Below are positions 1,611 to 2,436 of a DNA stretch of 64,000 bases, piece by piece. The notes under the pieces are model-generated. The model was not told where the DNA came from, ran no database searches, and saw only the letters and a list, made by a program, of their open reading frames with translations. How positions within the stretch are numbered: position 1 is the stretch's first letter; the number at the start of each line of letters is the position of its first letter. The DNA is from a virus. Position numbers and translations under genes: made by a program. The stretch is from IMG/VR virus record IMGVR_UViG_3300045988_174813; one strand, written 5' to 3'.

Positions 1611-2436
1611 TAGACGTGCCCTAATGCGTCTCTAAATAATCAGGGTAGTGCGAGAGAGGATGGATTTACGGTAAACTACCACTGGCGTCACAGACCCAAT
1701 AGGAGGGCGACGATATGTGGCTTGTCATTTGGAATCGCACTATAATACAAAGAAAACGAAAGTAACCGTGTATTTCTTATTCTGCGCGCCCTGCATTCAA
1801 AGCGCTCAATGAAGCAGGAGCTTAGTAGACAAAAGAAAAGGGTTCGTTTAGCTTATAACCCTAAAAGCTAAACTTTGTATAGAGGCGAGAGGATGAACCT
1901 CTATGGGGTTTTTGGTAACGGTCTCCTAACGAACACGTAACGGGTCGGAAGTCCCAAAATCTTCCCGCAGGCACGGCGATAGTTATCCCGCTTATGTGAA
2001 GGGTTCGTAGCGTAAAATGTACCCTATCCAGCAAGAAGCTACGCTGGGAGTGAGCTTCCGCTGGCAGTCGTGAAAAGCTCGCGTCTTAGGCTGTGTCAAT
2101 GCCCTAAGCGTTAGGTCGATTACGAGAAATTGACTAGGTTTTAGTGCTTTTGTGAAATATAAAGCTCCTGCGCGGGCGAGTGCAGAATATTGTAAAGGGA
2201 GAAGTACAATCCCATCGTTCAGTTTGGTCGTTGCTGTATAAAACGACCACCAAATGGCGCGCTTCCAGTTTCTAAATGCGTAGGTTGTCTTTACCTCAGA
2301 AATTATAGGTTGCATAGAAAGTAATTAGAAGATGTAAAATAATAATAAGTCCTATAAGAGTAAGGAAAAAGATAATGGTTAGATATGCAGGGCGTAGAGT
2401 TGATGGTGTGCTCGCGCGGAGGATGAAACCATCCAT

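Follow-up and report, generated by a model that had tools for sequence, protein, structure and literature searches.

Which kind of element fills the 826 nucleotides (nt) between two tRNA genes of a phage tRNA island is the question raised by the locus studied here. The DNA, a viral stretch of 64,000 nt (IMG/VR record IMGVR_UViG_3300045988_174813) referred to at its full length as the window, carries at positions 1611–2436 a region on the + strand that is bounded upstream by a tRNA-Met(CAU) gene with an encoded CCA end (1539–1610, + strand) and downstream by a tRNA-Gly(UCC) gene (2437–2511, + strand). A preliminary description had presented this region and four others (3102–3514, 5316–5602, 7742–7862 and 8410–8648) as long structured non-coding RNAs of no recognisable family, a view that gained support from the purifying selection and the compensatory base changes observed in relatives. 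Taking the evidence as a whole, the explanation that we consider probable is that of a structured non-coding RNA locus, whose stable RNA would be co-transcribed with the tRNAs and released by tRNA processing, in the niche known from the ROOL and GOLLD RNAs. The locus starts with a hairpin (P0) and a pseudoknot motif, termed domain A, followed by a large RNA of 667 nt. Throughout the text, L-numbers (L001, L034, L047 and so on) are labels of related loci or contigs.

Coding potential, conservation and search for known RNA families

Stop codons were found in all frames of the five regions, as the preliminary description had stated, and this held even when TAG, TGA or TAA was singly read through; in 1611–2436, the longest stretch open under the standard code on the + strand spans 45 codons. 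The GC content of the regions (0.43–0.51) was higher than that of the whole window (0.40), in line with the GC enrichment noted earlier. The methyltransferase gene located at 3625–4398 and a 71-amino-acid island protein were used as anchors to retrieve related islands, resulting in about 30 loci from human-gut assemblies, among which 11 distinct versions of the 826-nt region aligned end to end. The variable columns of this alignment were distributed over the codon phases as 71/72/61 (p = 0.61), in comparison with 189/65/45 (p = 3e-27) in the adjacent methyltransferase gene. The divergence of the locus from the window copy was 4.5–14.5%, with values of 0–7% for domain A and 3–17% for the remaining 667 nt, whereas that of four-fold sites in the adjacent methyltransferase gene was 23–48%; the locus thus diverges 3–10 times less than the synonymous sites of its neighbor. 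Since the region shows no codon periodicity and a divergence far under that of four-fold sites, we conclude that 1611–2436 is non-coding and selectively constrained. A protein-coding gene, whether intact, recoded or decayed, was rejected on the lack of a frame under any single stop reassignment and of a 3-nt periodicity of substitutions, a basis that does not include a translated similarity search (tblastx).

The locus did not correspond to any known RNA family. A search of the window with the 4227 covariance models of Rfam 15 at gathering score returned tRNAs only, in agreement with the earlier reading by eye. Lowering the threshold to E ≤ 10 over 9.6 kilobases (kb) added nothing in the five regions except two chance-level matches to microRNA or small RNA models, and the search of 1605–2440 alone (836 nt) with lax filters at E ≤ 10 gave zero matches. 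No Rfam 15 model for tmRNA, RNase P RNA, group I or group II introns, small ribozymes or riboswitches matched the RNA locus. Two outcomes had been named beforehand as contrary to the structured-RNA proposal, an Rfam match to a known family and a decayed protein gene, and neither was encountered in the window with these approaches, of which tblastx was not part.

The hairpins themselves were less informative. The stems quoted in the preliminary description are all present, within 1–3 nt of where they had been placed: GTTTAGCTT at 1846 with AAGCTAAAC at 1865, GAGCCAAC at 3216 with GTTGGCTC at 3230, AGACTTTCA at 3328 with TGAAAGTCT at 3364, and TCCCGTC at 8623 with GACGGGA at 8636. The hairpin said to be common to two spacers, TTTGGTCGTTG...AAAACGAC(C/T)ACCAA, was recovered at 2223 and 3291. 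The pyrimidine tract reported for three spacers is exact in two of them (TTTTTCTTTGT at 5500 and 5874) and reduced to TTCTTTGT in the third, at 3278. Although the stems exist, their density is not statistically remarkable: taken by itself, the folding energy exceeds chance only slightly, with a z-score of −3.1 for 1611–2436 and of −1.1 to −4.1 in the other spacers, and with coding controls down to −2.2. The z-score does not discriminate the locus from coding controls and was discarded as proof of structure. What speaks for structure is the conservation and covariation seen in relatives rather than the number of hairpins; the examination of homologous islands, suggested as a check of the earlier proposal, did reveal compensatory base changes.

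These data bear on the possibility that the regions lack a function and represent plain spacers, remnants of decayed genes or hairpins that arose by chance. The overlap of folding z-scores with coding controls would suit such an origin, as would the mobile endonuclease genes, which point to a recombination-prone island. Nevertheless, the low divergence relative to synonymous sites, the lack of codon periodicity and of a frame under any single stop reassignment, the extensive compensatory changes, and the maintenance of domain A across about 14 groups with otherwise unrelated flanks make this explanation almost certainly wrong.

A pseudoknot motif at the 5′ end of the locus

The 826-nt region is modular, being composed of a widespread pseudoknot motif and a large RNA specific to one phage group. 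This modularity is evident in L034, which carries domain A alone next to a tRNA-Leu gene, and in L001, which lacks one sub-domain of the 3′ part. P0 and domain A constitute the 5′ module of a widespread pseudoknot RNA family without an Rfam model. [quoted passage not shown]

Domain A was first isolated through L034/L035, a distant phage that keeps only the part equivalent to window positions 1654–1765, just downstream of tRNA-Leu(UAA) and followed, by eye, by a tRNA-Met that ARAGORN had missed. In the window, the motif extends over 1647–1769 on the + strand. Its 5′ strand of P1, AGUGCGA (1647–1653), pairs with UCGCACU at 1735–1741 and is followed by the near-invariant junction GAGAGGAUGGAUUU (1654–1667), part of which belonged to the search pattern described below, the remainder being invariant in the alignment of homologues (A3). 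The 5′ strand of P2, ACGGU (1668–1672), pairs with ACCGU at 1765–1769, beyond P1. Then come the conserved AAACUACCAC and YGGC (1673–1686), within which AAACTACCAC belonged to the search pattern; P3, a variable peripheral hairpin (1687–1711) with a length of 7–84 nt in homologues; and the conserved GAUAUGUGGC, a short variable linker and GUCAUUUG (1712–1731), which are outside the search pattern and invariant in A3. A short junction leads to the 3′ strand of P1, and an A-rich linker (1742–1764) ending in the invariant AAAACGAAAGUA connects P1 to the 3′ strand of P2. The motif, of about 125 nt, thus contains around 60 near-invariant unpaired bases and is an H-type pseudoknot, because P1 and P2 cross.

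Homologues were retrieved from public collections with the pattern GAGGATGGATTT, 3–12 nt, AAACTACCAC. Matches were obtained in 2 further IMG/VR contigs (with the first version of the pattern), in 38 metagenome loci whose names are mainly human-gut, and in 2 contigs from genome bins, one from goat colon and one (L083) labelled Acutalibacteraceae. The resulting collection comprised 50 unique sequences from gut and rumen phage contigs, which can be sorted into about 14 groups according to helix sequence and context. Blastn against 50,697 phage records detected tRNA matches only and no copy of domain A, and protein-anchored scans of viral contigs provided no further relatives of the locus. The more distant island L010, whose methyltransferase is 45% identical, carries a hairpin-rich spacer of 469 nt after tRNA-Met (5315–5783) in which neither nhmmer nor the covariance model R1 (see below) found domain A, and whose sequence is not detectably similar to either this motif or the window RNA.

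Covariation in the helices of domain A was extensive. By anchor-based extraction, P1 occurred with at least 12 different sequences, all complementary, forming a helix of 4–9 base pairs (bp), and P2 with at least 15, again all complementary. The closing stem of L034/L035 is fully compensated with regard to the window (GUGCGA/UCGCAC to GUCUCC/GGAGAC). Within the alignment, 89.7% of the helix cells were paired in comparison with 60.4% in shuffles, none of the 500 shuffles reaching the observed value, and sliding one strand by 1–3 columns lowered pairing to 30–41%. Changes on both sides were recorded in 16 of 17 pairs (P1, 7/7; P2, 6/7; P3, 3/3). P2 was 97.8% paired and the three core-proximal pairs of P3 92%; the alignment had been fitted to P2 and P3, which favors those helices, and the independent anchor-based extraction agrees with it. 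P1 gave a lower value (80%) owing to one group in which the register is shifted. The presence of G-U pairs where the opposite strand would have C-A fits an RNA read from the + strand.

The covariance model R1, built without the window copy, recognised window positions 1644–1774 with 98.2 bits (E = 5.5e-19), and the window copy shares with the family the crossing P1 and P2 and the conserved blocks, and lies, as the family does, within a tRNA array and on the same strand as the tRNAs. The same model added a divergent second copy in L082 (1853–1977, − strand; 37.9 bits), in which P1 and P2 are intact and the GGAUGG and GUCAUUUG blocks are replaced. Because of this divergent copy, the family is broader than the search pattern. 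In nine loci searched at E ≤ 1, no Rfam family above chance level overlapped domain A, and no published description of the motif was found by sequence string or by tRNA-island topic, the 10,006 candidates of Fremin et al. 2023 being outside this comparison. A T-box-like reading, with YGGC and GUGGC as receptors of tRNA 3′ ends, was also considered and rejected: Y is U or C, and the upstream tRNAs inspected end in ACCA or CCCA, not in GCCA.

Genomic context of domain A

The distribution of domain A is tightly linked to tRNA genes, which were present at all 34 loci examined except one short contig, and always on the strand of the motif. The gene just upstream is tRNA-Met(CAU) more often than any other, which applies to about half of the groups, and otherwise tRNA-Leu (UAA or CAA), Glu, Ile(UAU) or Asp. 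The distance from the end of this tRNA to the core of the motif is usually 11–50 nt, with the P0 hairpin, identified by eye, in between. In the most compact case, L073, the core starts 11 nt after one tRNA and the tail stops 14 nt before the next, leaving by eye linkers of few nt. Within the limited flanks retrieved, a suppressor tRNA(CUA) was found at 8 of 23 loci examined.

This context, together with the crossing of P1 and P2, raises the possibility that domain A acts as a small ribozyme capable of self-cleavage, or as a processing element, and cuts the tRNA or ROOL precursor; it would be the counterpart in Bacillota phages of the theta ribozymes found beside tRNAs in recoded Bacteroidota phages. 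The niche is theta-like with regard to the gut phages, the suppressor tRNA(CUA) genes and the position directly downstream of tRNA-Met, tRNA-Leu and others; the crossing resembles that of HDV (hepatitis delta virus)-like folds, the level of sequence conservation would suit a catalytic core, and a near-threshold match to twister is present in a related island (L047 134–200; twister-P1, 60.6 bits vs a gathering score of 67.2). However, a scan of both strands of positions 1–10000 with a minimal HDV-like descriptor gave 0 matches on the + strand. This descriptor follows the motif layout given in the supplement of PMC10879173, a nested double pseudoknot with a 7-bp P1 that begins with G, P2, a 3-bp P3, P1.1 and, within J4/2, a catalytic C. 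Applied as a control to the published theta ribozyme no. 1, it does recover it. No Rfam ribozyme family, HDV included, matched the motif, and domain A lacks the arrangement of P1.1, L3 and J4/2, having long conserved junctions where HDV-like folds have almost none. Furthermore, the core usually stands 11–50 nt away from the tRNA end with P0, by eye, in between, so cleavage at the 5′ boundary of P1 would not generate the tRNA's 3′ terminus. We therefore consider a self-cleaving role unlikely.

The sequences downstream of the motif are relevant to a different proposal, in which domain A would be a cis-acting regulator (a riboswitch-like aptamer, leader or attenuator) controlling downstream tRNAs, ROOL or small open reading frames (ORFs). 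A pseudoknot with highly conserved unpaired nucleotides does resemble riboswitch aptamers, and a conserved micro-ORF (MK.TK.S.GE.TPIG) follows domain A by 30–60 nt in two groups, L041/L042/L058/L061 and L057. It is located at about 1215–1265 (− strand) in L041 and at about 1655–1700 in L042, preceded by a ribosome-binding site recognised by eye; L071 also has a short ORF after the motif, a different one, whose ribosome-binding site was again recognised by eye. Nothing translatable follows in most groups, and the motif is flanked by tRNAs, sometimes within few nt; in addition, no conserved alternative of terminator and anti-terminator was seen. The micro-ORF was discarded as a general downstream partner, since it is restricted to two groups and absent from the window and most groups. 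A regulator in cis is, on these grounds, very unlikely.

ROOL is a further neighbor of domain A. The Rfam search located ROOL near the motif in at least five groups, on the same strand and at distances from 20 nt to about 1.3 kb. In the group seen most often, made up of L046, L047 and around 15 others, tRNA-Met is followed by a hairpin, by domain A and, 20 nt further on, by ROOL; the positions in L047 are 2069–2187 for domain A and 2207–2796 for ROOL (284 bits). ROOL lies about 1.1–1.25 kb downstream of the motif in L041, L042 and L061, and 290–480 nt upstream of it in L055, L064 and L080. On full-length copies (L042, L064, L046, L061, L055 and L047) the ROOL model scored 278–334 bits. No ROOL was found within several kb of domain A in the group of the window or in L034, L062, L067, L070, L079 and L083. 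The physical linkage between domain A and ROOL appears to be unreported: published descriptions of ROOL refer to proximity to tRNAs and mention no companion motif (PMC12286853, PMC5737381). As a separate observation, L064 carries a group I intron at 2839–3030 (59.8 bits).

The large RNA of the 3′ part

The remaining 667 nt of the locus (1770–2436, + strand) form a large structured RNA that is specific to the phage group of the window, with conserved blocks broken by variable helices that carry compensatory changes. Its most conserved core, at 1948–2170 on the + strand, has 162 invariant columns out of 231 in the alignment of 11 sequences. A core stem, GGAAG/CUUCC, is replaced in relatives by GAGAG/CUCUC, GAGAAA/UUUCUC and GUGGG/CCCAC, and other helices covary as well (GGUCGUU/AACGACC to AGUCGUU/AACGACU, and GCGC/GCGU to GCAC/GUGU). 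The hairpin UUUGGUCGUU...AACGACCACCAAA (2223–2254, + strand) shows compensation from G-C to A-U in L002 and L023, has a paralogue at 3291–3326, and is confined to the phage group. No homologue of the 3′ part was found outside this group by blastn or nhmmer, and a pattern scan of viral contigs returned three already known contigs only. The detailed fold that modelling proposes for this part is uncertain.

In the commonest domain A group, ROOL occupies the place that the 667-nt RNA occupies in the window, and the two are similar in size (667 vs about 590 nt). It may be, therefore, that the 667-nt part is a very divergent ROOL, or GOLLD, the locus then being simply domain A plus ROOL. The same order of tRNA-Met, hairpin, domain A and large RNA would be accounted for in this way, and at roughly two-thirds of the length of both RNAs there is a long hairpin, which closes a variable loop rich in A/U; by our reading, they also share short motifs in the same order (AAUCC, UUUGGUCG, GACCA..CAAAU and AGUUU). 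Nevertheless, the ROOL model (RF03087; gathering score 99.1 bits) gave no match in the window at gathering score or, over 9.6 kb, at E ≤ 10, and neither it nor the GOLLD model matched the 836 nt of 1605–2440 at E ≤ 10 with lax filters, although the same ROOL model reaches the high scores given above in relatives. The Rfam model of GOLLD, which covers its conserved 3′ region, had no match in the window either. When the first 10 kb were searched with nhmmer at maximum sensitivity, using a hidden Markov model of six local ROOL copies, the best match had an E-value of 13 and lay outside the locus. Moreover, the UUGGUC loop that in ROOL forms a pseudoknot with a downstream GACCAA belongs in the window to a plain covarying hairpin. 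A highly diverged ROOL thus remains a minority option, albeit the strongest of the alternatives that we considered.

Proposed expression and role of the locus

The window is phage DNA, as indicated by the terminase-like protein that it encodes, and portal, capsid and tape-measure proteins were recognised by our reading of the translations. We infer a host within the Bacillota because the closest terminases are those of Geobacillus virus E3 and Enterococcus phages (37–42% identity). The phage reads TAG as a sense codon, since it encodes a tRNA with anticodon CUA (2598–2673; 3′ end GCCA by eye) and in-frame TAGs fill its late genes. These codons are abundant in late structural genes (53866–60924 and others), with 65 in the 2352-codon tape-measure gene, and none were present in the early genes examined. 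The tRNA island corresponds to the first 9 kb of the window and contains 15 tRNAs according to ARAGORN, all on the + strand.

A candidate sigma-70-like promoter (TTGACT, 17 nt, TATAAT; 648–676, + strand) was identified by consensus match alone, with 11 of 12 positions in agreement, and probably drives tRNA-Leu, a GIY-YIG ORF, tRNA-Met, the RNA locus and tRNA-Gly. It is part of a cassette of about 50 nt (TTGACT or TTGAAT, 17 nt, TATAAT) that is repeated at 329–357, 648–676, 2550–2578, 4497–4525 and 6602–6630 and kept even in distant lineages. No signals of an internal promoter or terminator were seen in the locus. From this observation and from the short tRNA flanks in L073, we propose that the locus would be transcribed together with the tRNAs from the promoter at 648, that 3′ maturation of tRNA-Met would generate the 5′ end of the RNA, and that the cut of RNase P at the 5′ end of tRNA-Gly would generate its 3′ end. 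The product would be a stable RNA, and the role most likely for it is one exerted in trans in the ROOL/GOLLD niche. Regarding domain A, P1 and P2 hold unpaired blocks that do not vary, an A-rich strand crosses a helix, and P3 varies freely at the periphery. These traits are typical of a pre-organised core for specific binding or catalysis, which the pseudoknot-held loops may form, and differ from those expected of a passive spacer or a stability element. The 667-nt part may be an ornate RNA in the role that ROOL plays in other lineages, and would serve, as ROOL and GOLLD may do, the tRNA or translation programme of the phage during infection of its Bacillota host.

A bolder proposal is that domain A represents a new class of functional RNA that works with ROOL-type cages, acting as a ribozyme or as a specific receptor whose ligand is a tRNA, a component of the ribosome or ROOL itself, the 667-nt RNA being a third, independent ornate phage RNA beside ROOL and GOLLD. 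Domain A might then take part in loading, tethering or releasing cargo, or set off assembly when the phage switches to TAG-reading translation. We regard this proposal as speculative and rather unlikely.

Several points weigh against a stable, tRNA-released RNA as the product of the locus. Its transcription, ends and stability are all deduced from sequence, and the roles of ROOL and GOLLD, with which it is compared, are themselves conjectural. The folding z-scores are modest, domain A alone giving −1.4 where coding controls reach −2.2. The search pattern demanded two exact blocks, so that their apparent invariance is biased, as is the count of lineages. Variation in the 3′ part is limited to a single group of close phages, and 13 of the 202 pairs predicted by RNAalifold are compensatory, with some pairings ambiguous. 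Finally, phage mosaicism can decouple the histories of neighboring segments, so the comparison of divergence with the adjacent gene may mislead; L012 and L016, for instance, have identical methyltransferase genes and are yet 3.6% apart in the locus.

Other elements of the tRNA island

The second spacer (3102–3514, + strand) is frameless and 81–96% identical in relatives. It comprises a second conserved structured RNA, the S2 module (3102–3241, + strand), directly after tRNA-Ile(UAU), and a copy (B) of the hairpin at 2223. S2 was aligned across four lineages (alignment A6); three of its helices covary by eye, for example GGCG/CGCC to GCCG/CGGC and UGCG/CGCA, and its 3′ hairpin is terminator-like in L042 and L061. 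Spacer 3 (5316–5602, + strand) is 97–99.7% identical in relatives, above the flanking genes, which suggests that it is very strongly constrained or was recently exchanged; no homologue of it was found outside the phage group. Spacer 4 (7742–7862, + strand), between tRNA-Ser(UGA) and a tRNA that is Ser(GCU)-like by eye, is conserved in part of the group, and spacer 5 (8410–8648, + strand), with the strongest folding z-score of the spacers (−4.1 on the + strand), is partly conserved in relatives.

Outside the five regions, reading by eye revealed two tRNA-like genes that encode their CCA end and had been left unannotated by ARAGORN: a Leu(UAG)-like gene with a long variable arm (4406–4489) and the Ser(GCU)-like gene (7863–7950), the latter being conserved in L040, L048, L072, L078 and L081. 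In the segment 4779–5235, tRNA-like sequences that are irregular or interrupted follow one another, among them one to which ARAGORN assigned a 4-base anticodon (4779–4855); sub-threshold matches to the Y-RNA-like YrlA were obtained at 4801–4914 and 4979–5087, apart from the finding on the RNA locus. A short UAUAU-like leader precedes most island tRNA genes directly on their 5′ side by eye (e.g., 3018–3026, 8065–8073 and 6395–6403) and may be a processing or transcription signal. Also by eye, a recurrent long-stem element (AAGRCGC, few nt, ACAGCAA, about 40–85 nt, GCGYCUU), whose stem covaries between lineages, was observed at 2679–2773, about 4948–4965 and 6338–6398 of the window, at 8925–8990 and 10870–10935 of L034, and at 5886–5950 of L010, often just upstream of a small ORF or of tRNA-Gln.

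Upstream of the RNA locus, between tRNA-Leu and tRNA-Met, a GIY-YIG homing-endonuclease-like ORF broken by in-frame TAGs extends over 868–1503; relatives have GIY-YIG or HNH endonuclease genes at other places of the island, or none. In L010, a PhoH gene (10348–12255) also matches a LAGLIDADG endonuclease domain. Between the promoter at 329 and the next one, a non-coding leader of about 280 nt (360–640) is 82–90% conserved in relatives; its counterpart in L034 is about 590 nt long and unrelated in sequence.

Comparison with known phage RNAs

Structured RNAs in phage tRNA islands are a known kind of element; domain A, S2 and the 667-nt RNA match no described family among those tested. Few of the RNAs known from bacteria and phages are as large and elaborate as ROOL and GOLLD, RNA-only cages whose function is still sought, and a small conserved pseudoknot that travels with ROOL offers a new, testable handle on this problem. 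The motif also occurs without ROOL, and in the phage studied here it is joined to a different large RNA. With about 125 nt, it is small enough for direct biochemical and structural study. More generally, the tRNA islands of stop-codon-recoded gut phages hold more structured RNAs than tRNA finders report, an observation that adds to that of the theta ribozymes.

Small stable RNAs within a phage tRNA cluster have a precedent in species 1 and 2 of phage T4 (rnaC and rnaD), which are matured from tRNA precursors. The likeness is one of description only, as phage and host are unrelated, and we know of no pseudoknot of the domain A type in these RNAs.

The theta ribozymes are closer in setting. These RNAs, of about 55 nt, have an HDV-like core of P1, P1.1, P2 and P3 with a catalytic C and abut the 3′ end of tRNAs (Kienbeck et al. 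2024, PMC10879173); more than 70% of them follow Met, suppressor or Leu tRNAs, and around 90% of the predicted hosts are Bacteroidota (PMC10879173). Theta ribozymes and domain A are both small pseudoknotted RNAs located immediately downstream of tRNAs in gut phages that reassign TAG. On the other hand, domain A is larger (about 125 nt), has other conserved sequences and occurs here with a Bacillota-type terminase, and its core, which usually begins 30–50 nt after the tRNA, lies beyond the 5 nt within which theta cleavage takes place.

GOLLD, an RNA of about 800 nt borne by phages near tRNA islands, combines a variable and a conserved part (Weinberg et al. 2009), and its representative env-38 lies downstream of a Met-tRNA (PMC12286853). 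The locus of the window is similar in length (826 nt), in its position directly downstream of tRNA-Met and in being modular. The two differ in polarity, the conserved region being 3′ in GOLLD, whereas the widely conserved module is 5′ in the window.

ROOL (RF03087) is a large, ornate RNA of phages and prophages found near tRNA islands and probably transcribed together with the tRNAs (Weinberg et al. 2017, PMC5737381), for which cryo-electron microscopy has revealed a nanocage (Kretsch et al. 2025, PMC12286853). The 667-nt RNA resembles it in setting, since it separates domain A from tRNA-Gly within the tRNA island of a phage, and in having a size near the roughly 580 nt of ROOL. [quoted passage not shown] Domain A, in turn, is outside the Rfam model of ROOL and occurs without it, as well as upstream or downstream of it, lying beside ROOL in some phages and beside a different large RNA in the one described here.

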